In this document: positions 3,737-44,416 of the stretch, piece after piece
How positions within the stretch are numbered: the stretch's first letter is position 1
Layout of the letters: every line of letters starts with the position of its first letter
Virus record (IMG/VR): IMGVR_UViG_3300042090_002000
Span: 13,725 to 77,724 of that record
Length of the DNA stretch: 64,000 nucleotides
Reading direction: 5' to 3' (one strand)
Origin: a virus
Program-made: the position numbers and the translations under genes
Notes under the pieces: generated by a model
Seen by the model: the letters and a program-made list of their open reading frames with translations, nothing else
The model's database searches: none
What the model was told of the DNA's origin: nothing

Positions 3737-4072
3737 ATGATTTCCCCGCAACAGATCGAAACAGTGCAGTGGGTGGACACCGCGATTCGCATTATTGGCT
3801 GGCCGACAGTTTTAGGTATCGTGGTGTGGGTTGTGCGTAAGTGGGACGCCGGGCAGCGCGAATTGAAAGAGTTGCACGTCAATGGCCGGGTGGCGGTCGA
3901 GACGATGAATTTGGTCAAGGCCGAAGTCGATACGATCAAGAATAACCACCTCGCACATCTTCAGACAGGCATCGAGCAGTTGGCGGGTAGTAACGACAAG
4001 GCCGTCGAAGTGCTCCAAGACATCAAAGCCGGAATCGGAATCCTAGTTGATCGCACCCCGCGAAAAGGTTAA
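3737..4072 (+). CDS. Holin-like membrane protein
   Basis: One N-terminal TM helix followed by a coiled coil. Lies downstream of a late-type promoter motif. Confidence 0.45.
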   Translation: MISPQQIETVQWVDTAIRIIGWPTVLGIVVWVVRKWDAGQRELKELHVNGRVAVETMNLVKAEVDTIKNNHLAHLQTGIEQLAGSNDKAVEVLQDIKAGIGILVDRTPRKG

Positions 4073-5457
4073 CTGAGTCGCAGACCCCAGAATTTTCGGT
4101 CAAGCATCGGCACGTTCGAAAGCCGCTTCACGCAAGAGGGATCGGCAGTCACGATAAATTTCTTGCCCGTGGGGAAACTTACTTCGATTGTCAGTTCATC
4201 AGTGCTGGCGTTCATCTTTGTCACAGTCCCGCAATAACGAGCAGCAGGCCCAGTAAGAATTTCCACGAAATCTTGCAGATGCACTACTGGAAGTGGAGGG
4301 GCGTTAGATTTTTTCATCATTTCCTGAATGTCTGCGTGCGGCACAGTTACGGCCTGCACGAAATTCCCTTCGCCGTCGCAGAGAGATGCGATCTCAGAAA
4401 TACCGCGTACGCGGAGCAGTCCACGTACAAGCGGTTGGCGCGAACAACGGGCAAAGATGTAGCCGAATGCGAGTTCGCCATCGTCGGTGACCGGTGCGAA
4501 TATCTGCGCGGGATTTTTGCGGAATAGCTTCTTACCTTGATCGCGCAGAGCCGGGGCGATCTGCAGCATTCTGTGGTCTGATGAAATTTCCAGCATGCAC
4601 CATGGCGTGTCTTGCAGATGACCTACAGGCCCGAACGAAAGGATCGGCGAGTTATCGGCAGGCGGCGCGTCGAAGCGGAAGACTTTGGCGCGATTCAGCC
4701 GGGCCAGATATCGCTTGCCCAGCCCCGCGCCGGTGAGTGACGCTTGGTGGGTGATGCTGCGCAGGTACGCGCCGACCGCCACAGCCTTGACATCTTTGTC
4801 CGCCAGAAGCCGCTTGATCGCGGGCCGGAAAATTTTGCGGATCATGGGTACCGGTGTGTGGAATTTTTCCGCGACTATGGCGTAGCTGCGGGATTCGGCA
4901 TACGCGAAGATCATATCGGTTAAACTACCATGCGGGGTGGTCTCTAATTTAGCTTTGCGGAGAATAGGGCGGATAATCTCCGCATCAGGTGCGGTGCCGA
5001 TTAAGATCATAGAGCCGATGCTTTGCTCGATGATTCGGAGATTTTGCCAGACGCGGGTTTGAATGCAGCCGTGGGTTTTGCCGATGAATGTTTGAGACTT
5101 TTCGAGCAGGTAGTATTCAATGAAGAACTCCGCAAACTCTGGGCGCAGGTGAGCGAGCAGTGGCGCAAGTTTATTAGGATAGTCGTGGGCGAACGCTTTG
5201 AAGTCGATTAGGCTGCTGTTTTCGGGAAGCGCCTCCGCGCTCAACAGTGGATCAACTTCTTTACGGCGGAATGCTTCGAGGCTGGCCGCTTCGGACACAT
5301 GGGTCATATAGTCGTGAATCCCGTGCGTCCGCTCATTGTGGGCGCGGCGTTTTATCTTGCTATGGGCTCCGCAATTGAAACTGCCGCGAGCCCGGCCATA
5401 ACTGCGCCTGCCAAGATTATGCGCCAGAGTTCTCCAACCACACGATTTAATCTTCAT
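4069..5457 (-). CDS. Transcription regulator: sigma70 region-4-like HTH domain(s) fused to a NusG-family NGN+KOW domain
   Basis: Sigma4-like segment LAHLRPEFAEFFIEYYLLEKSQTFIGKTHGCIQTRVWQNL. Second HTH SRSYAIVAEKFHTPVPMIRKIF. NGN segment WCMLEI...IFAP...LAFGYIFA...LRVRGISEI. KOW segment LQDFVEILTGPAARYCGTV. Confidence 0.75.
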   Translation of the reverse strand: MKIKSCGWRTLAHNLGRRSYGRARGSFNCGAHSKIKRRAHNERTHGIHDYMTHVSEAASLEAFRRKEVDPLLSAEALPENSSLIDFKAFAHDYPNKLAPLLAHLRPEFAEFFIEYYLLEKSQTFIGKTHGCIQTRVWQNLRIIEQSIGSMILIGTAPDAEIIRPILRKAKLETTPHGSLTDMIFAYAESRSYAIVAEKFHTPVPMIRKIFRPAIKRLLADKDVKAVAVGAYLRSITHQASLTGAGLGKRYLARLNRAKVFRFDAPPADNSPILSFGPVGHLQDTPWCMLEISSDHRMLQIAPALRDQGKKLFRKNPAQIFAPVTDDGELAFGYIFARCSRQPLVRGLLRVRGISEIASLCDGEGNFVQAVTVPHADIQEMMKKSNAPPLPVVHLQDFVEILTGPAARYCGTVTKMNASTDELTIEVSFPTGKKFIVTADPSCVKRLSNVPMLDRKFWGLRLS

Positions 5458-5767
5458 GGATTTTTTTAAGCCCCCTGATGTTTTTGCGAGCGAGTCGCAG
5501 GTAGCGTCGCACTAAAATCTCAAATAGCGCGCCGTGGTTGAGTTCTGGTTCAGCAACGTGAAGCATTTCGTGGATTAATGTTTTGTCGTAACCTTTGTCG
5601 CGTTTGTTCAACACGATGATCGGTTTCGCGAACGGCACCGCATGAACAGTCATGCCGTAGTCGGTGGGAAGGGTTTCGTTGTCTACAAACTTCAACACGC
5701 CGGGTTCAGGAAGCCGGTCGTGCCAAATCAACGTGTTGACTCGTTTGTACGCCGTCGCCAGCCTCAT
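5447..5767 (-). CDS. SprT-like zinc metalloprotease
   Basis: TLIHEMLH (HExxH) plus a downstream HG..F. Confidence 0.7.
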   Translation of the reverse strand: MRLATAYKRVNTLIWHDRLPEPGVLKFVDNETLPTDYGMTVHAVPFAKPIIVLNKRDKGYDKTLIHEMLHVAEPELNHGALFEILVRRYLRLARKNIRGLKKIHED

Positions 5768-6254
5768 GGGGTGCTCCCAAAAGAAGGGTACCCCAACGAC
5801 TAGAAGTTGTCAATCTTTTTTCTCCCAGCAATCGTGAATCGTGTTGACATACCCTCGCGCGATCAGGTCGCGTTCAAGTTCCGCTATATCCATTTGGGCA
5901 TATTGCATTTGTGCGTAATACTCCCGTGAAAACAAACGCACAGGCACTGACCGCTCTGCCCAGTGGCGTTGAATCGCGTCGCGGAACTGTTTTTCGCGCA
6001 CGTTCCCGGCCCAGCCTTGTTCATCTGTCCGCTGTTCGACACGTTCGTGCCAGTCGCGCACTTTGCCGGGCAGGCCCGGCGGGAATAAAATTGAAAGAAG
6101 CCAATTCATAAAACTCTCCTCAGTCGCTTTGGCCATGACATCCTCCATGACGCGAGAATAGCAGGATTTGGTTTTGATTGCAATAGACCGCAGGTACTAG
6201 TACTGCATGGTTTTAATTAAGACTTTCGGTTACCAAATAGGGAGGATTTTTCCT

Positions 6255-6536
6255 ATGTCACACACAATCGCATTGAGTTGGACTGCAAGCACTGACGCAG
6301 TTCAAGGCTACAATGTTTATGAAGGAACCGCCGCCGGAAATGAGTCATCGACGCCGGTGAATGGAACAACACTGATCACGGGAACCACTTACACTGTGAC
6401 GGTTGCAGGGCCGGGGGTGTACAGCTTTGTGGTCAAGTCGGTCGAGAACGGTGCAGATTCCGTCAACTCGAACGAAGTGATCGCAACTGTACCTCCGTTT
6501 CCCCCAACCGGACTCACTGTGGGAGCGATTAATTAA
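6255..6536 (+). CDS. Single fibronectin type III domain virion protein
   Basis: LSWTAS...GYNVY...YSFVVKSV...SNEV...PPTGL. SD GGAGG upstream. Confidence 0.75.
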   Translation: MSHTIALSWTASTDAVQGYNVYEGTAAGNESSTPVNGTTLITGTTYTVTVAGPGVYSFVVKSVENGADSVNSNEVIATVPPFPPTGLTVGAIN

Positions 6537-6591
6537 TTCCCTATGGTCCGCGTGGTATTCAGTAACACACATGTTTTAGGGAGATGCTGCC

Positions 6592-8070
6592 ATGGCGACA
6601 TACTATATTTCGTACTCTGCAGGTTCCGATAGCAACAACGGATTGTCGAAAACAACGCCGTGGCAGCGTCACCCATACATGCGCAAATTTGCAGGCAAGT
6701 ACACGCACGCTGCAGGTGACGTTTTTATTTTCAAGATGGGTGATAGCTGGCCGAACGCTTGCTTCGATATGGTGATCGGCGCAGGCGGAACGAGCAGCAC
6801 TCCTGATCAGTACACCTTCGATCCGACGTGGGGCACAAATCCCGGGACAGTTGGTAACACCGGGCAGACAGTCGGGGCTTACCAGTTCACCGCAGGCGGA
6901 GCCGCCATATCCGGCGGCGACGGATACAACAAATTTATTTTCAACGATGATGTGAACTACGTGACGTTCAATGGAATCGAGTTCACGGGCATGGTGTGGA
7001 CCGGGTCGCCCGCGTTCGGGAATCCGGCGATGATCGACTTGCAGCAGAGCACCAACGTGATTATCTCGAATTGCTATTTTCACGGGTGGGCGCACTCCAA
7101 CACAACATCGGACGCGCTGCTCTGTGTGCTGGGAAACGGGAACTCGCCGTACAACGCAGGCTGTCGCGTGACGGGCTGCGTATTCGATGGATTGAATTCC
7201 GGCGGCCCGGGCATCTCTGACAGCGGGTCGGCCACGTTTGCGATTCCTCTGTCCGACAACAACATCATTCGGAATATGTCCAACGGACTTCTGTTGAATG
7301 CCAACGGAGTGGCCCATGACAATCTGATCGGGCCGATCAACCAGTCTTTCGATTCCACGAATCATGAGAATTGCATTGAGCCCATCGACATGATCCCCGG
7401 GGGAACGTCGACGGTTTATATTTATAACAACGTGATTCATGACGCAACAGCCGCGATGATTTTGTGCCAAGGTGCGGCTCCGAACAATGGCGCGGAGATC
7501 GACTACGTTTGGAATAACGTGTTTTACGTGGGGACGGATGCCAATCCACCGATCCCACTGCAGTTCGATTCTATATCCACGAACATGGCGAACTGTCAAG
7601 TCCACGCATGGAACAACACCATCGTGGGCGGCGCAGGTGCGTGCATGCGTACTGTCAGTCGCGGCAATGGAAATTTCGGAGTGCTGGATATTCAGAATAA
7701 CCACTGCATCTCCGACACGGCAGCGCCCGGGGGCATCATCGAATTGGGCGTGACAGGTACCACCCTGAAAAATAACAACAACGTCCTGCAGACGCAGAAG
7801 GCAGCGGCTGCGCAGGGATACAGCAACACAGAGAAATTTTTCTACAGTCCGACTGCGGGCGGCGCAACGATTGGTGCGGGCGCGAACCTAGAAAGTCTGG
7901 CGACCGGCGCACTGGCTTCGTTGGCGCAGGACACAGGATACGCCGGAGAGCGCACTACTGTTGCCCGACCGACAAGTGGGGCGTGGGATGCTGGCGCATA
8001 TCAATTCGCGGCGGGTACAGGTACCGCACCAACACCGCCGACAAATCTTGAAATTGAGAACGTCGCTTAA
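6592..8070 (+). CDS. Right-handed parallel beta-helix protein (tailspike/depolymerase-like)
   Basis: Starts TYYIS...GSDSNNGLSKTTPW, has repeated I.NN.I/YNN beta-helix rungs, and ends with WDAGAYQF. Confidence 0.7.
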   Translation: MATYYISYSAGSDSNNGLSKTTPWQRHPYMRKFAGKYTHAAGDVFIFKMGDSWPNACFDMVIGAGGTSSTPDQYTFDPTWGTNPGTVGNTGQTVGAYQFTAGGAAISGGDGYNKFIFNDDVNYVTFNGIEFTGMVWTGSPAFGNPAMIDLQQSTNVIISNCYFHGWAHSNTTSDALLCVLGNGNSPYNAGCRVTGCVFDGLNSGGPGISDSGSATFAIPLSDNNIIRNMSNGLLLNANGVAHDNLIGPINQSFDSTNHENCIEPIDMIPGGTSTVYIYNNVIHDATAAMILCQGAAPNNGAEIDYVWNNVFYVGTDANPPIPLQFDSISTNMANCQVHAWNNTIVGGAGACMRTVSRGNGNFGVLDIQNNHCISDTAAPGGIIELGVTGTTLKNNNNVLQTQKAAAAQGYSNTEKFFYSPTAGGATIGAGANLESLATGALASLAQDTGYAGERTTVARPTSGAWDAGAYQFAAGTGTAPTPPTNLEIENVA

Positions 8071-8076
8071 AAAGGC

Positions 8077-8105
8077 TTGACACCTTTTCGTGGATGTAGT
8101 AGGAT
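8077..8105 (+). promoter_or_regulatory. Sigma70-type promoter for the structured RNA/tmRNA locus
   Basis: TTGACA(8077)-17 nt-TAGGAT(8100). The predicted start near 8112 coincides with the first hairpin. Confidence 0.65.
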
Positions 8106-8111
8106 CGCGGT

Positions 8112-8332
8112 GTCGGACCTACTCACGGGGATGCCACCGCCATCAGGACGTGCATAACGACCGGATGGCAAGCGTACCGTTAACTGCGACTTGAAGGTGT
8201 CTCCCTGAGTAGGCCTGACTGGTGGAGGTGAAATGGTTCCACTGGGATGTTCGTCGGTCACTGAACCAAGCCATGCATGCATGAAACTCATCCGGTCTGC
8301 TGCCGAACATCCCAGTGGGGCCGTTTCGCTCC
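8112..8332 (+). ncRNA. Structured RNA domain (two long hairpins with complementary loops), 5' of the tmRNA acceptor piece
   Basis: 8112-8138 pairs with 8196-8219 and 8224-8253 pairs with 8304-8332. Loop GACCGGATG (8159-8167) is the exact complement of loop CATCCGGTC (8289-8297). Confidence 0.7.
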
Positions 8333-8342
8333 GAAAGTTACG

Positions 8343-8682
8343 CTCGTAGAAAGGTCATGACTGCCTAAGTGGAAGGGAGTTCAACTCTCCCCCGATCCAC
8401 CCGATGAGTGATGCGCCATGGGTTTCGTGAAACCCGCCATCTGTTTGTGATCACTCATTCGGTGGGTCGGACGGGTTTCGACACATAGGTCGAGAAGTGA
8501 CGCTAGTTCGAGTCGAAGTGAACGCGACGTAATCGCGTATCAAACGATAGACGCCAAAACTAAAATGGCTAAGGTCCTTGCGTTCCCAGCAATGCGAACT
8601 GTGGCTCCGGCCCGACAGTTTGCGCTGGCTGCGTAAGAGCCGCCCGGGAGTGGCCGAAAGCTGCTCCCGGGATTTTAATTTT
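8343..8682 (+). ncRNA. ssrA: Circularly permuted (two-piece) tmRNA
   Basis: The T-arm GGGAG-TTCAACT-CTCCC and CCGATCC-A (8375-8399) precede the 5' end GGGTCGG-ACGGGTTTCGAC (8464). The acceptor stem has G3:U70 and A73. P2 helix pairings are present. The resume motif ATAGAC-GCC opens the tag AKTKMAKVLAFPAMRTVAPARQFALAA* (8553-8636). Confidence 0.92.
8643..8682 (+). terminator. Intrinsic terminator after the tmRNA coding piece
   Basis: CCCGGGAG...CTCCCGGG hairpin followed by ATTTTAATTTT. Confidence 0.7.
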
Positions 8683-9183
8683 ATGACAAAAAGTCTTGCA
8701 AAACAGAAAGAGTACCGCGACCGGCGAACTGCTGCCGGAATTTGCGTTGCTTGTGGTGGGTTATTATCAAGGAAGACCGTGATTTGTGCATCGTGTCAAG
8801 AAACACGCAATACGTATCGTCGTACTCGTCGAGCAGATCGCAAGAAAAAAGGGTTGTGTCCAGAATGTGGTGAGGTTGCTCCTAATGGGCGCACATACTG
8901 TTTGGATTGTGTTTTTCTGCATAGACTGGATTTATTAAAATTATCGCCTGAAGAGACGGAGCGAGCCGTTAAGGCATGGAATTCATTTCAGGGCGCATGC
9001 GAGTGTTGTGGGACTACTCAACCGCCAAAGCGGGGCTGGTTTATGGATCACGATCACAAAGCGAAAAAATTTCGAGGGATTATATGTCAATTTTGTAATA
9101 CAGGATTAGGGTATTTTTTCGACGATGTGACCAAACTTCACGCCGCAATCGAATATATAAAAAGGAGTCAAAATCGTGCCTAG
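8683..9183 (+). CDS. Endonuclease VII-like HNH nuclease
   Basis: CECCG...MDHDHKAKKFRGIICQFCNTGLG, with N-terminal CxxC repeats. Confidence 0.8.
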   Translation: MTKSLAKQKEYRDRRTAAGICVACGGLLSRKTVICASCQETRNTYRRTRRADRKKKGLCPECGEVAPNGRTYCLDCVFLHRLDLLKLSPEETERAVKAWNSFQGACECCGTTQPPKRGWFMDHDHKAKKFRGIICQFCNTGLGYFFDDVTKLHAAIEYIKRSQNRA

Positions 9184-9409
9184 TCATCGTTTCGAGGGCT
9201 TTACGCCGGTTACTGATAGCACGCACATGGATGGGTACAAGTATGATCCGGTGGGAAAAAAACTCACGGTGCGATTCAAGAACGGTTACGTTTACGAGGC
9301 CAGCGGCGTGTCGTCGGAGACGCATCAAGCATTCGTGTCTGCGCCATCACAGGGCACGCACTGGCATTGGGTCATCAAGGATAATCACAACATCACACGG
9401 GTAAAGTAG
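9176..9409 (+). CDS. KTSC domain protein
   Basis: STHMDGYKYDP...LTVRFKNGYVYE..GV......FVSAPSQG. Confidence 0.8.
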   Translation: MPSHRFEGFTPVTDSTHMDGYKYDPVGKKLTVRFKNGYVYEASGVSSETHQAFVSAPSQGTHWHWVIKDNHNITRVK

Positions 9410-9845
9410 GGCGTTCGTTCTCGAACGGCGCGAAACCATCCATTGTTATGTCTATATCGGCATCGGCGGCGTCATGACACTCTTCGTGCATACGCCAATT
9501 TTGAAATTCGCTCTCCCACATCCCGACAAACTGATAGTGAACCTCTCCCGCCGGAATGGATTGGCCACACCACGCGCAGCGATAGTTTTTCATTGCCCGT
9601 GGGTGTGACGATCTTCCGAAGTCGCTCATCAGTCGTTCTCCGGGCGCGCGAGTTCTCCGTAGATAACGGTTGGCTCTGGTGGTTGTGCCGGACGGTAGAA
9701 TGGCAAGCTGGCGCGGAACGAGTAGACCACCATTTGATCCCCTTCCAAACTAGAGAGCATCTTCGCCAGTCGTCTGCGCATGTCATGCACAGAGACGAGA
9801 GTTCCTTCACAATCCACATTGATGTTCAGTTGAGCCATATTCTCC

Positions 9846-11470: not shown

Positions 11471-12028
11471 TCAAGCAAAAACTAGACTGTTCATCGCGTC
11501 TTGCGCAAGCACATTATCATTCTCGCGAAGATATACGAAAGCCGACGCAGCGGATTTGTGTGCCAGAAACTCAGTGACTGCGCCGATGCGTTGTGTTGCG
11601 TCGAAGATGGCCATCGCGGCGCTGTGGCGGAACATGTGCGAGTGCGCGAAGCTGGTGTGGATTCCCGCAAGCACGCATGCCTTCTCAATCATCGCGTTGA
11701 AGTAGTCGCGCGACAGGCCGTCGAAGAGTCGCGAGGTACGCTTGATCTGAGCCATGGTGATCATTGGCGTCATATCGAATGCCGGGTCGTCGCAGATATG
11801 GAGCGCCCGCACGACTTTCTTGCCGCGCTTTGCCGCCGGAACCAAGATCACCCACTTACCGTCGATCTGACAAACATCTTCGCCGCAGAGAGACAACATT
11901 TGCGAGACGCGGGTCCCCGTAAAAAACATCGTCAACATGGCCATGTGGTGCAGGCGGCTTTTGAGTGTGTCTGCATCGTACGCGGCCCGGAAGACTTTCG
12001 CAAGATCACTGATCGGCAGATATTCCAT
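11471..12028 (-). CDS. Tyrosine recombinase, catalytic domain only (185 aa)
   Basis: TGTRVSQ (R), AKRGK (K), HMFRH (HxxR), LAHKS (H), FVYL (Y). SD GAGGAG upstream. Confidence 0.85.
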   Translation of the reverse strand: MEYLPISDLAKVFRAAYDADTLKSRLHHMAMLTMFFTGTRVSQMLSLCGEDVCQIDGKWVILVPAAKRGKKVVRALHICDDPAFDMTPMITMAQIKRTSRLFDGLSRDYFNAMIEKACVLAGIHTSFAHSHMFRHSAAMAIFDATQRIGAVTEFLAHKSAASAFVYLRENDNVLAQDAMNSLVFA

Positions 12029-13096: not shown

Positions 13097-14351
13097 TGTT
13101 TCCTCCGGCACGCATAATCTCATGATTGCGACTAGAACACAATGGTACGAACGTACCAGTACCAAAATTTCGCTTGACAGAAAATCCAGATATGATAAAG
13201 TGGCTGCACGGTGGCTCGACTGAGCCCGGCAGCACCACCCTGTAGCCAGCATGGCCGGGGAGGCAGGCACCGGGCTCCAGCGGCCTTCGTGGGGAAGCCA
13301 CTAATCTAATGAACTCCAATGGATCGCTGCTTCCTTAATTCGAGGAGACAATGTGGATATGTTAGATTGGGGTCTTTTGTTGGGCGGTATCTGGCTCTTA
13401 GGGGCCGCAGTGCTGGCGTTGCTGATTGGGCCGGTGATGCGCGAAGACAAATATCTTTTCGGTTTCTGCATTCGGAGGGATCGTGACGATTCCTAAGTTC
13501 GAGCCGGGCGATCTGAATTCTATTATGGCGTGGTATCTGACGGGCAAGGTTACCATGTCTCAACTGTGTGATGAATTGAACGCCCGCCTGCAAGAAAAAG
13601 CGGAACGCGAACACGACGCAGCGTTGGCCGACGCGCGCCGACGAGGTTTCCGACCCAATTGTTATTAGAGGAGAGTGTTATGAGCGATCAATGCCAAAGC
13701 TGCGGCTCGTACCAGAATCTGAAAATTTGTGCGCTGTGCGCCGCCTCGCTGATCTGTGATCGCTGTCGTGGGCATCACGAGTTCGGCTGCAAGGAAGCCC
13801 AAGAAAAGAAGGCGCGCGGACAGGGAAAAACTGTGCGCGAGATCGGGCGGTCCGACGTAGTGATTCCGCCGATGGCTGGTCGACAGATTCAATCTCCAGA
13901 AGCAACTCGTCCCGGCAATATGAATCCCGGGATTGGCGAGACGAGGCAGCTATCCGTTTCAGCACGGTTGCCGGAACCAATCAAGGTTGCAAGTCAGATT
14001 CAGGACCCGGTCGACGAGACCGCGCAGAATGAGGCATTCAACGCGGCGATGGATGTCGCGCGGCAACTGCAGATCGATATCGCGGCGAGCATGATCGGCG
14101 CGGAAGTTGTCTTGCCCGCTGGACCGGAGCCGGATGTCGACGAAATCAACATGCAGATCGCGGAAGCGGTCGCCGCTGATGATGGGATGCCACTGCCAAA
14201 TTTCGAAGAGATTGATGCTGTGATTGCAGAAGCTGAACAGGCTGCAGCGTCCAGCACGAACGAGAATTGAGTCGAACCAGACGAGGAGTGAAATCCAAGC
14301 GGCATATGTTTGGCTCAAGAGTTTTTGTTAAATCTACGTTTGGAGGAAACA

Positions 14352-29070: not shown

Positions 29071-30669
29071 ATGAGCAAACACACTCAGTACGGCGCGGAC
29101 GCGCGAGACGCGATCCTGCGTGGCGTGGATTTCCTTGTTGACGCTGTTGCATTGACTGAAGGGCCGCGTGGAAGAAATGTCATCATGGGGCAACGCGCGT
29201 TGGGTCAAACGCCGAAAGTTTCGCGCGACGGCGTGACCGTTGCGAACTATGTCGATCCGGTTGACCCCACTGAACAGATGGGCGCTGATCTGATCCGCGA
29301 GGCTTGCCAGAAAACCGACAACGTCGTTGGCGACGGCACGACCTGCACGGCTGTTCTTGCCCGCGCTATGATTCACGCTGGCTTTGATTTGATCACCAAG
29401 GGTGCGAACCCTTTGGCCATGGAGCGCGGCATTCATAAGGCCACGGCGCTTGTGATTGACCGGCTGCGCAAGATGGCTGTAGAAGTCTCCGGGGACAAAG
29501 TCTTTCAAGTTGCCACGGTGTCTGCGCACGGGGACACGGAGATCGGATGGCTTGTCGCGGAGGCTGTTGAGAAAGCGGGCAAGGATGGAATTGTGACGGC
29601 GGAACCATCCGTGACAGCGAAGACGTTTGTTGAGAACGCGCCCGGGCTGGAGTTGGAAAAATCGAATCTGCTTTCGCCGGTGTTCATCACGCACCCAGAG
29701 GAAATGAAAGCGGAGTTGCCGAATTGTCGCATCCTGTTGTGGGAAGGTGTGATCTCGTCTGCCAAGGCGGTTGTGCCGATCTTGTCGCAAGTCAAGGCCG
29801 ATAACACCCCGCTGCTGATCATTGCCGGAGGATACGAGGCCGAAGCATTGGCGTGCATCATCAAGAACAAGGCCGCGTTGGCGCTGCCAGTGAACGCAGT
29901 GCGCATGGAAGCCTACGGTGACCGGCGCAAGGAAGTGATGCGCGATATTGCCGCGCTAGTCGGCGGCACCGCGTACACGGAAGACATGGGAATGAAAATC
30001 GAAACGGTCGATCTGAAAAAGCTGGGTGTGGCGCGCAAGGTTGTCACCACCATGGCCAAAACGCAGATCATCGACGGCAAGGGCAGCCAAGTGGAATTGG
30101 CCGGGCGCATTGCCCATATCCGTACCGCTATCGAAGCGGCGGCTCCGGCGGAGCAACCCCCGCTGAAAACGCGACTGGCGGCGCTGCTGGGCGGCATCAC
30201 GATCATCAAAGTGGGCGGCACGACCGTCACGGAGATGGAAGAGAAGCGCGACCGTGTTGTCGATGCACTATCGGCGGCGAAGGCTGCGGTTGAGTCTGGC
30301 GTGGTCGCGGGCGGTGGCACTGCCATCTTCAATGCGGCATTTGGATTGAGTGAACGTACTCCACCCGTAGCGAGCGAAGAGGGACCCGGATTTTCTGTTG
30401 TGGCCAGCGCAGGGCGCGCGGTGGTCCGGCAGATCGCAGAGAACGCGGGCGTCAACGCGAACGAGATAATCGGTACTCTTTTATCAAGTCATGAGGGGCT
30501 GGGCTACAATGCGGTGACCGGAGAATTTGAAAATTTGGTTAACGCAGGAATTATCGATCCCGTGAAAGTTGTGATCGAAGCCCTGAAGAACGCGGCAGCG
30601 GTGGCTTGCAGCATCCTCACCATGGGAGCCACGGTGAGCGAAATTAAACAGGAGAAACAAAATGGATAG
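29071..30669 (+). CDS. groL: Chaperonin GroEL (divergent, phage-encoded)
   Basis: GPRGRNV, DGVTVA, GDGTT, GDRRK, RVVDAL, GVVAGGG, GIIDPVKV. No GGM tail. Confidence 0.95.
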   Translation: MSKHTQYGADARDAILRGVDFLVDAVALTEGPRGRNVIMGQRALGQTPKVSRDGVTVANYVDPVDPTEQMGADLIREACQKTDNVVGDGTTCTAVLARAMIHAGFDLITKGANPLAMERGIHKATALVIDRLRKMAVEVSGDKVFQVATVSAHGDTEIGWLVAEAVEKAGKDGIVTAEPSVTAKTFVENAPGLELEKSNLLSPVFITHPEEMKAELPNCRILLWEGVISSAKAVVPILSQVKADNTPLLIIAGGYEAEALACIIKNKAALALPVNAVRMEAYGDRRKEVMRDIAALVGGTAYTEDMGMKIETVDLKKLGVARKVVTTMAKTQIIDGKGSQVELAGRIAHIRTAIEAAAPAEQPPLKTRLAALLGGITIIKVGGTTVTEMEEKRDRVVDALSAAKAAVESGVVAGGGTAIFNAAFGLSERTPPVASEEGPGFSVVASAGRAVVRQIAENAGVNANEIIGTLLSSHEGLGYNAVTGEFENLVNAGIIDPVKVVIEALKNAAAVACSILTMGATVSEIKQEKQNG

Positions 30670-33309: not shown

Positions 33310-34440
33310 ATGCGTACCCATATGCACACATTTTCGTCGGGTGGCGGCTCTGGAAGCGGCTCGTCCTCTTCGGTCATGTCCGAAGTTTCCGCGGCGTCTG
33401 TTGCGACTCGTGCGATTGGCACCGTTTATCAAAACACAACAGGCAAGCCTTTGCTTGTGAGCGTAGCCGCGCAAAATAGCGGCACCAATGGATGTATTAC
33501 CGCGAACACCGGCGCAACATCATCTCCCGCAACTCCAGTTGCGCAAATGTCGGGACAGCAAAACGGCGATGGTTTGACGAACTTGCAGTTTTTTGTACTC
33601 CTCGGAAATTATTACGAAGTGGTGGCGACAAACGGCACACAAACGCTTTTGATCTGGCGCGAATACGAACTTGCTTCTGGCACGTTCCTTGACAGCGGAG
33701 ATATCGTTGGGACTCGTGTTTCTGGCACGATCTATCAGAACACTGGTGCGACTACGTTGTTTGTGGTGGCCCAATCGAACACTCTATCGACAGGCGATGA
33801 GATTAATTGCGTGTGCGATGGGAATGCGTCTCCGACTACAGTCGTGGATCAGCAAGTTATTTCAACCTACGGTGCTTACGGCGGCCCGCTCGCGATTTAC
33901 TCCATGTTTCCTGTGCCTGCTGGGTATTATTACAAAGTTACGGTTACCACAAGTGGGTCGGGTGTTTTGGCACACTGGCATGAATACTCATGGGCTGTTC
34001 CTTGCTTGCAGTCTTTGAATTTACTTGGAGCTAATCCCGGGTCACTTCCAGCTACTGGCCAGCCCTATTCTGCGGGACCTTATGCCCCGACAGTTCCACG
34101 AACACTCTTCGGTCCGACTGGTATTTCTACCCCATCGTTGGAGTCGAACGGCACAACGACTCAATGGGAGAACGCTTTCGGACTTCAGTCATGGCAAAAT
34201 GGTTCAAAAATGACTTGGGTTGCAGTCATCAGTCAAGTGGCTGTTGGCGGCAACGCGGCTGCAATCTTGTCGGACAATGGAATCCCTGCGTATCGGCCTG
34301 TGACGCTGGTCGGGGCGGGAAACGGTCTCTCTAAAACGCTGCGCGCGCCGGTGCTGCCAAATCAGTTTTACACATACTGGGATTATTCATCATCCAACAA
34401 CATCACAGGAATCGCGTGGATTGAGTACACGCTGGGGTAA
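33310..34440 (+). CDS. Virion protein with tandem beta-rich repeats
   Basis: TR..GT(V/I)YQNT motif repeated, as seen in phage fiber/decoration domains. Confidence 0.55.
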   Translation: MRTHMHTFSSGGGSGSGSSSSVMSEVSAASVATRAIGTVYQNTTGKPLLVSVAAQNSGTNGCITANTGATSSPATPVAQMSGQQNGDGLTNLQFFVLLGNYYEVVATNGTQTLLIWREYELASGTFLDSGDIVGTRVSGTIYQNTGATTLFVVAQSNTLSTGDEINCVCDGNASPTTVVDQQVISTYGAYGGPLAIYSMFPVPAGYYYKVTVTTSGSGVLAHWHEYSWAVPCLQSLNLLGANPGSLPATGQPYSAGPYAPTVPRTLFGPTGISTPSLESNGTTTQWENAFGLQSWQNGSKMTWVAVISQVAVGGNAAAILSDNGIPAYRPVTLVGAGNGLSKTLRAPVLPNQFYTYWDYSSSNNITGIAWIEYTLG

Positions 34441-34444
34441 GCAT

Positions 34445-35746
34445 ATGGCACACGATATTCACGGTGCATTGGCGGGATTAAAGAAGCCCGGCCAAGGCCA
34501 CAAACCGAAGGGAGCCCACGGGCGCGCGGCAGTTCACGCGCTGGGGCGTACGAAGACCACGGGGAATTTTGCTAAGATCGAGAAGGCCAAAGGTAAGGGC
34601 GCGGCAATCGCGGCCTACCAAAACGCGCTAAAGGCGCACAAGGGGTAATACCATGCCGCAGTCCAATGATCCAGTTGCCAAGGCGCTGGCCGGAGCCAAG
34701 GCCACACTCGCACACGCGAACGCTACATTCCCAAGCTCAGGAGCCCCGAAAGCTGCAGCTACGCCTGCCCCAGCAGTGGCTCCAAAAAAGGCTTCGATGA
34801 GTATCGGCGAGCCCGAAAAAGGGACCGCGAACGAATTGAAATCGAAAGCTGAAATGGTCGGCAAAGCCAAGACTGCGCTGGGTGATGCTCCCAAGATGCA
34901 CAAGGGTGGCCCGGTAAAGAAAAGCGGAACCTACCAACTGCAGGCCGGGGAACACGTCCTCACCGCTCCTGAAGCCAAGACGGCCCGCAAACATGCGCTG
35001 ATGATGTCCGGTATGAAGTCGCTCGCCAAGGCCGCGAAGTAATCTTGCCCGCAAATTAAGACTTCGGTTTCCATAAGTAGGAGACTATTGGTCATGGCAA
35101 AAGATATGGGGAAGGCTCTCTCTGGGCTCTCGAAGCCCGGCAAGACAGCGTCCGCCAAGCGCGGTACCGCGACTATGACTATCGAGGCGATGCCTGCCAA
35201 ACCGAAGACTTTTACAGATACGAATCTGGATGGCCGGTCGGCTCCGGGCGCGGCTACTGGCGAACAAACCATCGCACCGAAGGCCAAACCGGGCGGATCG
35301 ATCAAACCGGAAATGAACGCGACACCGAAGATGGGCGCGGGGTTTAAGGCCGCATCTGCGATTACAAAAGCATAAGAGAGGAAATTCCCATGGTTGCCAA
35401 AGGATCACCCAAACCAGTTGTGACAGGCCGCAAAGGTAACGTCGGAGGGGTTTCTACCCCCGGGCGTCGCGGCGATCATAAAGCCGCGATGATGGCGGGT
35501 ATCAAGAATCTTGTTGCGCCGGGGCCGGGAACGGTCAAGACCGCGAAAATTTCGAACCTGTTGCGCAAAGACACGAACCCCAAAATTGATGCGGGAAATG
35601 TGAAACCTGCGACCGGCACTTCGAAGCCTGCCGCTGGATCACCAAAAGATTTATCGCGTGGCTCTGGCCATGCTGGCGTCCATATGGGCGTAGGGACCGA
35701 TCCTGCCACGAAACGGGATTCCGCGAGCGTCGCGAAGCCGAACTAA
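34445..35746 (+). other. Cluster of four small Lys/Ala/Pro/Gly-rich basic ORFs (34445-34648, 34653-35042, 35088-35375, 35390-35746)
   Basis: Low-complexity basic composition, tightly packed in the late region. Confidence 0.6.
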
Positions 35747-44341: not shown

Positions 44342-44416
44342 CTGCTGACATCTTATTACATGTTTTTGACTTCCTGTTTCATAAGTGTATGTTGATTTTG
44401 AATTGAGGAGCATTCG

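Follow-up and report, generated by a model that had tools for sequence, protein, structure and literature searches.

The 64,000-nucleotide stretch of DNA analyzed here (the window) spans positions 13,725 to 77,724 of IMG/VR virus record IMGVR_UViG_3300042090_002000, a 77.7 kb phage genome of wetland or soil origin that is estimated to be 78% complete. It contains an open reading frame (ORF) that was described in the initial annotation as a fusion of a sigma-region-4-like (sigma4-like) helix-turn-helix (HTH) and a second HTH to a complete NusG protein, consisting of the NusG N-terminal (NGN) domain followed by a KOW domain. The boundaries given for the ORF proved exact, and the gene lies on the minus strand (Table 1). 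Profile and fold searches agree that the sigma4-like HTH, the second HTH and a full NGN plus KOW are present in one polypeptide, which we refer to as the fusion protein. It is conserved over its full length in 35 aligned homologs. An AlphaFold model of the whole protein built on 35 homologs had a mean predicted local distance difference test (pLDDT) score of 79.8; besides the first 46 residues, residues 65–67 and 71–81 fell below 50.

For the C-terminal half, a Foldseek search with the whole model returned NusG, Spt5 or RfaH in every listed row out to an E value of 1.1e-3, and the best match had an E value of 5e-6 with a probability of 1.0. The NGN domain was aligned by VIA-align to the NGN domains of NusG and Spt5 proteins with Z scores of 8.8, 8.5 and 8.1 and a root-mean-square deviation (rmsd) of 2.3–3.3 Å, the highest score being that to Aquifex aeolicus NusG (Z 8.8). 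Its alignment to the Escherichia coli NusG NGN domain (Z 8.5) covered 96 of 98 residues at 2.7 Å, and RfaH scored Z 7.8. A sequence profile of the C-terminal half and its stand-alone relatives retrieved Spt5 (1.3e-6), A. aeolicus NusG (1.6e-5) and E. coli NusG (2e-4), and covered Thermotoga maritima NusG over its whole length (8.3e-5). Profiles also reached the KOW domains of Spt5, NusG and uL24. When the family profile was compared with E. coli NusG using hhalign, the match was clear (Prob 88.9, E 2.4e-6), as opposed to that with E. coli RfaH (Prob 2.7). The resulting register pairs F-GYIFAR with FPGYVLVQ, VRGLLRVRGIS with VRSVPRVMGFIG, and DFVEILTGPAARYCGTV of the KOW domain with GEMVRVNDGPFADFNGVV. 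The by-eye match to NusG in the initial annotation can thus be divided: its LAFGYIF, VRGI and KOW segments fall inside the hhalign alignment, while its W..L and IFAP segments lie upstream of the aligned part, where the support comes from family conservation (W286, F320 and P322 are invariant) and from the fold. Across fused and split forms of the family (see below), W286, F320, P322, R337 and G352 of the NGN domain do not vary. In the fused forms Y333 is likewise invariant and G332 nearly so; these residues align with the FPGY-type strand of NusG, which lines the pocket for the clamp helices of the beta' subunit of RNA polymerase (RNAP). The KOW domain was modeled as a beta-barrel with a pLDDT of ~90, although a model does not exclude fold switching.

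Despite these similarities, the fusion protein is a very divergent NusG relative. It did not reach the curated NusG models (Pfam NusG PF02357 or KOW, NCBIfam NusG), its score against NCBIfam NusG_myco was 15.3 bits (E 0.011) versus a cut-off of 150, and a phmmer search of the protein against the PDB gave chance matches only. Among phage families, the whole protein matched PHROG 6386, annotated "transcription antiterminator", with an E value of 1.2e-3. The C-terminal half alone matched at 1.1e-4 over profile positions 62–169 of 179, leaving the first part of the NGN domain unmatched. Based on these profile matches and those of the class b proteins described below (2.4e-7 to 1.3e-3), the members of PHROG 6386 appear to be distant relatives of both. 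Some fused homologs have already been named "NusG" by JGI pipelines, and the NusG half is therefore already known as a database annotation.

The N-terminal half was recognized mainly by its fold. Folded alone on its stand-alone relatives, it gave a model with a pLDDT of 86.2, and all of the top 22 VIA-align matches to residues ~89–156 of this model were sigma region 4 (Z 10.4–8.3). The best was SigF (Z 10.4, rmsd 0.9 Å over 57 residues), and others included SigD4 (Z 10.3) and region 4 of sigmaE bound to -35 DNA (Z 8.9); HTHs of the LuxR type scored below sigma region 4 (Z 7.6). Foldseek with the same model found no match below an E value of 1e-3, so that the sigma4 match comes from VIA-align, and by sequence the match to sigma factors was weak (NCBIfam sigma70-ECF TIGR02937, E 0.22). 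Within the putative recognition helix, IQTRVWQNLR, residues Q133, T134, R135 and W137 are invariant. The second HTH-like domain had weak fold matches only, to LuxR- and LysR-type domains (Z 5.7), and the equivalent part of the stand-alone relatives had sub-threshold matches to Sigma70_r4_2.

The fusion is not an assembly accident. It was matched by ~140 clusters at 90% identity, the best 120 of them with a coverage of 83% or more of the protein, and it is carried by seven IMG/VR contigs, most of them 96–100 kb long. No fused homolog was detected in the genomes of 185,579 species, and hence no host could be assigned from prophages. A scan of 1.84 billion representative proteins also uncovered the two halves as separate proteins. 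Class a consists of stand-alone proteins of ~250 aa with the sigma4 and HTH domains, matching fusion residues 50–265. Class b proteins match residues 272–457 with their very N-terminus; some are ~190 aa long, and the others continue into an unrelated C-terminal extension. The idea that this extension is a class a homolog was rejected (hhalign Prob 0.3). Both classes co-occur in the same jumbo-phage records. Class a was present in 4 of 4 class b records that are at least 90% complete, and an NGN-KOW gene in 2 of 2 class a records of this completeness. The isolate Tunturiibacter phage Tunturi_5 carries both as well, bringing the overall count to seven of seven complete genomes with both. In this phage the class a sigma4 + HTH protein is gp346 (PP885688.1 301753–302487), which is annotated as an "exonuclease", and the class b NGN-KOW protein is gp25 (PP885688.1 25259–26293), which is annotated as a "transcription antiterminator" and directly follows the clamp-loader gene. 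On three short contigs the class a and class b genes lie 1–2 kb apart on the same strand. The initial annotation had allowed that the halves might turn out to be separate genes in all homologs; instead they are fused in the ~140 clusters and co-occur where they are split, in the jumbo phages. The halves are fused in one lineage, and in another they are co-present and occasionally adjacent, as in a Rosetta-stone pattern. The fusion junction retains two strands, the tail beta-strand of class a and after it the N-terminal one of class b. They are successive in the model and can be read as a hairpin, which suggests how the split proteins could associate.

Further variants were found among the relatives. 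P0211 has the reverse domain order, with the NGN-KOW part preceding C-terminal HTHs. The class a protein P0146 matched the Pfam family Phage_antitermQ (PF06530) through its HTH part alone, with 26.9 bits at a cut-off of 26. The other class a relatives scored 15–17 bits against this family. Class a members also had sub-threshold Sigma70_r4 matches and matched PHROG 79 ("Q-like") over the sigma4-like HTH. The analogy to lambda Q drawn in the initial annotation gains some support from class a, while the fusion protein itself stays below the Q thresholds. As a separate observation, several long class a or class b homologs of 591–785 aa (P0243, P0188 and L025 3757–6114) have intein or LAGLIDADG signatures, which suggests that inteins are inserted in these genes.

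Features of the fusion gene, its neighbors and the GACTT motif are listed in Table 1. The protein collection holds a 412-aa product (P0002) that is identical to fusion residues 51–462, and its start is therefore M51. The longer form, with its start at M1, is favored by three points: in many homologs the basic stretch of the first 46 residues is conserved at the protein level, with the pattern MKxKSCGWR..SLGRRSYG; the stop codon of the co-oriented upstream gene overlaps the fusion ATG by 11 nt; and related phages show the same abutment of stop and start. As the last member of a leftward three-gene unit, the fusion gene follows genes for a 112-aa protein and a 106-aa HExxH protein; six of seven related loci retain this unit, HExxH gene included. 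Judging from its motif, the 106-aa protein looks like a small SprT-type metallopeptidase; it had no Pfam and no PHROG match. In P0011 and P0061 the HExxH protein and the sigma4-NusG protein are read as a single protein. Most large genes of the phage genome are oriented rightward, and it encodes a terminase, a portal, GroEL, a DNA polymerase, a helicase and an Erf-like protein. The GroEL-type chaperonin gene lies at 29071–30669 on the plus strand (PHROG 5725, E 2e-118). A 185-aa ORF at 11471–12028 on the minus strand matches phage integrase profiles in its C-terminal part only and is possibly a truncated or remnant integrase.

Table 1. Coordinates in the window of the fusion gene, its predicted domains, the adjacent genes and the GACTT motif.
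Feature	Position	Strand	Remarks
Sigma4-NusG fusion ORF, 462 aa from M1 (P0001)	4069..5457	minus	alternative start M51, giving 412 aa
Residues 1–46, basic Arg/Lys-rich extension, predicted disordered	5320..5457	minus	pLDDT <50
Sigma region-4-like HTH, residues 91–156	4990..5187	minus	fold match, invariant columns
Second helical HTH-like domain, residues 157–240	4738..4989	minus	IRKIFRP helix nearly invariant
Linker, residues 241–281 (helix 248–256, strands 261–264 and 272–275)	4615..4737	minus	fusion junction
NGN domain, residues 282–388	4294..4614	minus	VIA-align, Foldseek, hhalign
KOW beta-barrel (DFVEILTGPAARYCGTV), residues 389–447	4117..4293	minus	profile and fold
106-aa gene with HExxH motif (LIHEMLHV)	5447..5767	minus	co-oriented, upstream of the fusion
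112-aa gene, no known family	5810..6148	minus	first of the leftward three-gene unit
Candidate target motif GACTT-N7-CATAAGTA, example copy	35060..35079	plus	
Further GACTT-N7-CATAAGTA copies	3487, 23016, 40667, 44368, 45587; N9 variant 6221	plus	

No recognizable RNAP or sigma factor encoded by the phage came to light. The genome and five near-complete relatives were found to contain no Sigma70_r2 match above threshold and no Rpb2 domain, and a NADFDGD-like catalytic motif was absent from all ORFs longer than 250 aa in the genome and four of these relatives. Sigma70_r2 also had no match within the fusion protein, and a weak match in the relative G001 was rejected because it falls in a helicase homolog. 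A search for T7-type RNAP (PF00940) gave no match but was uninformative, as the control genomes came out empty too. From these gene inventories, host RNAP is probably used by the phage throughout infection. With no recognizable RNAP or sigma factor, the late genes thus probably depend on a modified host RNAP. Separately, an ORF of 1625 aa lies upstream of the window (G000 4696–9573, L124) and measures 1464–1917 aa in relatives. It had no PHROG match and no informative match in the Atlas, and it may encode an ejection or internal virion protein or, less probably, a very divergent polymerase.

Two repeated DNA motifs had been put forward in the initial annotation as possible targets of the protein. 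The GACTT-N7-CATAAGTA motif, allowing at most two mismatches, occurs seven times in the window, always on the plus strand, where 0.64 copies are expected. A slightly degenerate form of the pattern has 40 copies in five genomes of the phage group when one strand is scanned, and a looser form, scanned on both strands, has 45 copies on the plus strand versus 4 on the minus strand. The motif is real, strand-specific and conserved within this group of phages. All copies occupy the short interval that separates a stop codon from the GAGG/GGAG ribosome-binding site of the gene that follows, with the consensus aaAttaA-GACTT-N7-CATAAGTa-nAGGg and the ATG 8–16 nt beyond. The 20-bp motif precedes rightward genes, the fusion gene itself being in a leftward unit, and no conserved -35 or -10 element surrounds it. 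The invariant cores of the motif parallel the invariance of both recognition helices. Nothing else than co-presence in related genomes ties the motif to the fusion protein. Boxes of the second motif, GTAC-N4-GTAC, are also over-represented (22 with at most one mismatch versus 8.5 expected; five exact).

A sub-class of the GACTT motif, found at 44368 and 45587 of the window, at 13914 and 46152 of G001 and at 34298, 75702 and 95704 of G004, ends in GTG-TA and has a longer leader; in most copies a conserved CTTATTACA stands ~6 nt upstream of GACT. At 44366–44393 the sequence TTGACT-16-TATGTT reads as a sigma70-like promoter that overlaps the motif. As an explanation of the motif in general, a sigma70-type promoter with xxGACT as its -35 element and a -10 element after the motif was rejected, since it fits the longer-leader sub-class only and not the sites that abut the ribosome-binding site. 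A small ACUU/AAGU hairpin was also rejected, because GACTA variants keep AAGT. Metatranscriptome contigs, which show neither strand nor true 5' ends, were available for comparison. Within the first 20 kb, the deepest contig from the wetland metatranscriptome X6 (6221–6746, depth 15) starts exactly at the G of the GACTT copy at 6221, and in a second run a contig starts at 6253, 2 nt ahead of the ATG. Two other contigs from RNA libraries cover 8126–8336 (X6, depth 10.5) and 8345–8682 (X8).

The fusion protein can be compared with several described systems. Like RfaH, LoaP, UpxY, ActX and TaA, it has a two-domain body of NGN and KOW that would be expected to dock on the beta' clamp helices, and it fits the logic of these specialized NusG paralogs as operon-specific processivity factors needing a recruitment signal. 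Unlike it, none of them has been described with a covalent sigma4/HTH module (reviewed in PMC7819879 and PMC6391919). In RfaH, moreover, it is the NGN domain that recognizes the ops element, on the non-template strand, and KOW is an autoinhibitory alpha-helical domain, whereas the KOW of the fusion protein is modeled as a barrel. Lambdoid Q proteins (PF06530, PHROG 79), whose families are matched by the class a relatives, resemble the fusion protein as proposed here in being DNA-site-loaded factors that travel with RNAP. They differ from it in having no NGN or KOW, and the fusion protein falls below both Q family thresholds. At a sigma-dependent pause, Q acts via the RNA-exit channel and the beta flap. 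The NusG-like proteins that phages encode as stand-alone genes (PHROG 6386 and the NusG/RfaH entries of BFVD) likewise consist of NGN + KOW, but have only ~180–240 aa. The best BFVD fold matches of the fusion protein were NusG-like proteins of 173–241 aa, and none of the BFVD matches combined both halves in one protein (query TM-score no higher than 0.21). Literature searches found no functional study of these stand-alone proteins. With the sigma-70 family the fusion protein shares the region-4 fold (rmsd 0.9–1.5 Å), and its two modules could occupy the same two surfaces of core RNAP as sigma or as T4 gp55 + gp33. Unlike sigma, however, it has no region 2 or 3, its domain order is reversed, and NGN stands in the place of region 2. 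The fusion protein falls outside the sigma, Q and RfaH families, since tests for defining features of each gave a negative result.

Taken together, the findings lead us to favor, with about even confidence, a role of the fusion protein as a DNA-site-recruited elongation or antitermination factor for host RNAP. RNAP binding, recruitment to a DNA site, antitermination and the identity of the target motif are what we infer. In this proposal, the fusion protein would act as a phage transcription factor on the multisubunit RNAP of the host. The NGN domain would dock on the beta' clamp helices, once vacated by sigma region 2, and across the cleft, as in NusG, RfaH and Spt5, while the KOW barrel would be left available to a partner, for example the ribosome or another factor. 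The sigma4 and second HTH domains would serve as a built-in sequence-specific reader of double-stranded DNA, possibly also contacting the beta flap as sigma region 4 does. Recruitment would take place at specific promoter-proximal sites on phage DNA, for which the GACTT motif is a reasonable candidate, either as double-stranded DNA or as the non-template strand of an early paused complex. The protein would then travel with RNAP and make it resist pausing and termination while it transcribes the rightward (middle or late) genes. The logic would be that of lambda Q, the construction that of a sigma4 reader on a NusG body, and in the jumbo phages the same device would be made from two proteins. 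More tentatively, and with rather less confidence than in the role itself, the fused and two-gene forms could represent a new class of device. Such a device would place a sigma4-type reader and a NusG body on both sigma-docking surfaces and hand RNAP over from a DNA site to a termination-resistant state, with no phage sigma factor or RNAP involved.

Several observations weigh against this proposal. The fusion protein has no Pfam match even at E values up to 10, so that its detection requires profiles or folds, and a profile of the NGN domain only gave just chance-level matches to solved structures, so that the NGN domain is identified from its fold and from the full-length profile. The jumbo phages are mutually related, and their co-occurrence counts are thus not independent events; common descent may account for part of the joint presence of the split genes. 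The association of homologs with the GACTT motif, raised in the initial annotation, holds within the phage group that carries the fusion but does not extend to the split-gene jumbo phages, in five genomes of which the motif is no commoner than a control pattern. Since the motif abuts the ribosome-binding site and the X6 contig starts at its first base, it may instead be an RNA 5' end or leader element and not a site for a protein on double-stranded DNA. In addition, a pattern scan showed few strong intrinsic terminators in the rightward operons that would call for antitermination, and a host among the Acidobacteriota is only suggested, through Tunturi_5 alone.

The alternative that survives best, although we consider it unlikely, is that the fusion protein is an initiation factor or sigma substitute. 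Its sigma4 domain would recognize a -35-like element and grip the beta flap, and its NGN would sit at the beta' clamp helices, the usual site of sigma region 2, so as to direct host core RNAP or a holoenzyme to late promoters like T4 gp55 + gp33. The best folds, ECF and other sigma region 4 structures including sigmaE on -35 DNA, are what such a factor should have, GACTT resembles the GGAACTT -35 element of ECF (extracytoplasmic function) sigma factors, and the 20-bp motif, around which no -35 or -10 element is conserved, stands directly before genes in a phage with no recognized sigma region 2 or RNAP. Initiation would, however, call for a region-2-like domain to melt the -10 element, which the protein does not have, and NGN domains are known as binders of elongation complexes and not as promoter melters. 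The reversal of the domain order relative to sigma also speaks against this alternative, as does the position of the motif, which abuts the ribosome-binding site and leaves no space for a normal distance from -10 to start.

Less probable still is a general phage replacement for NusG that acts without site-specific loading, for example by blocking Rho or by coupling translation, with the N-terminal module binding protein or RNA. In its favor, the alignment of the C-terminal half with housekeeping NusG is better than that with RfaH, phages do encode stand-alone NusG-like proteins, and the basic disordered N-terminus could bind RNA; the constant pairing with sigma4 + HTH, whether fused or split, nevertheless argues for targeting. 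We find it slightly harder again to see the protein as a host shut-off factor that sits on the beta flap and on the beta' clamp helices, blocking host sigma or displacing host NusG, and that uses its HTHs for protein contacts. The two modules could plausibly target both docking surfaces, and flap-binding phage inhibitors of initiation are known, namely P23-45 gp39 (PMC3351154) and Xp10 P7 (PMC3985653). Yet both HTHs have putative DNA-recognition helices that hardly vary, which is more than a protein–protein role needs, the class a relatives resemble Q-type DNA binders, and in a phage without a recognizable RNAP blanket inhibition would stop phage transcription too. A role outside transcription, in which KOW- and NGN-like folds are reused in replication, packaging or translation, is highly improbable: KOW/SH3-like barrels and ferredoxin-like alpha/beta folds do recur elsewhere, NdhS and ribosomal proteins are among the lower rows of the fold search, and class b adjoins the clamp-loader gene in Tunturi_5, but the NGN + KOW arrangement matches full-length NusG end to end and is joined to a sigma region-4 fold.

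Among transcription factors, only NusG/Spt5 is known to be conserved across all of life. The statement in the initial annotation that no sigma4-NusG fusion has been described stood up to full-text literature searches, which returned no description of a sigma4/HTH-NusG fusion or of its two-gene equivalent, and the two reviews of NusG paralogs are silent on it (PMC7819879, PMC6391919). Apart from RfaH, the recruitment mechanism is known for no specialized NusG paralog (PMC6391919). If recruitment through a DNA site is correct, the fusion protein would be the first specialized NusG paralog recruited through an attached module that binds double-stranded DNA, and the coupling of a NusG body to a built-in DNA reader of the sigma4 type would add a new solution to the problem of how such paralogs are targeted. 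The cultured pair of Tunturi_5 and Tunturiibacter, with gp346 and gp25, makes the idea testable and allows the fused and two-protein forms to be compared. For phages with neither a polymerase nor a sigma factor of their own, the device would, if real, be a new route to reprogramming host RNAP.

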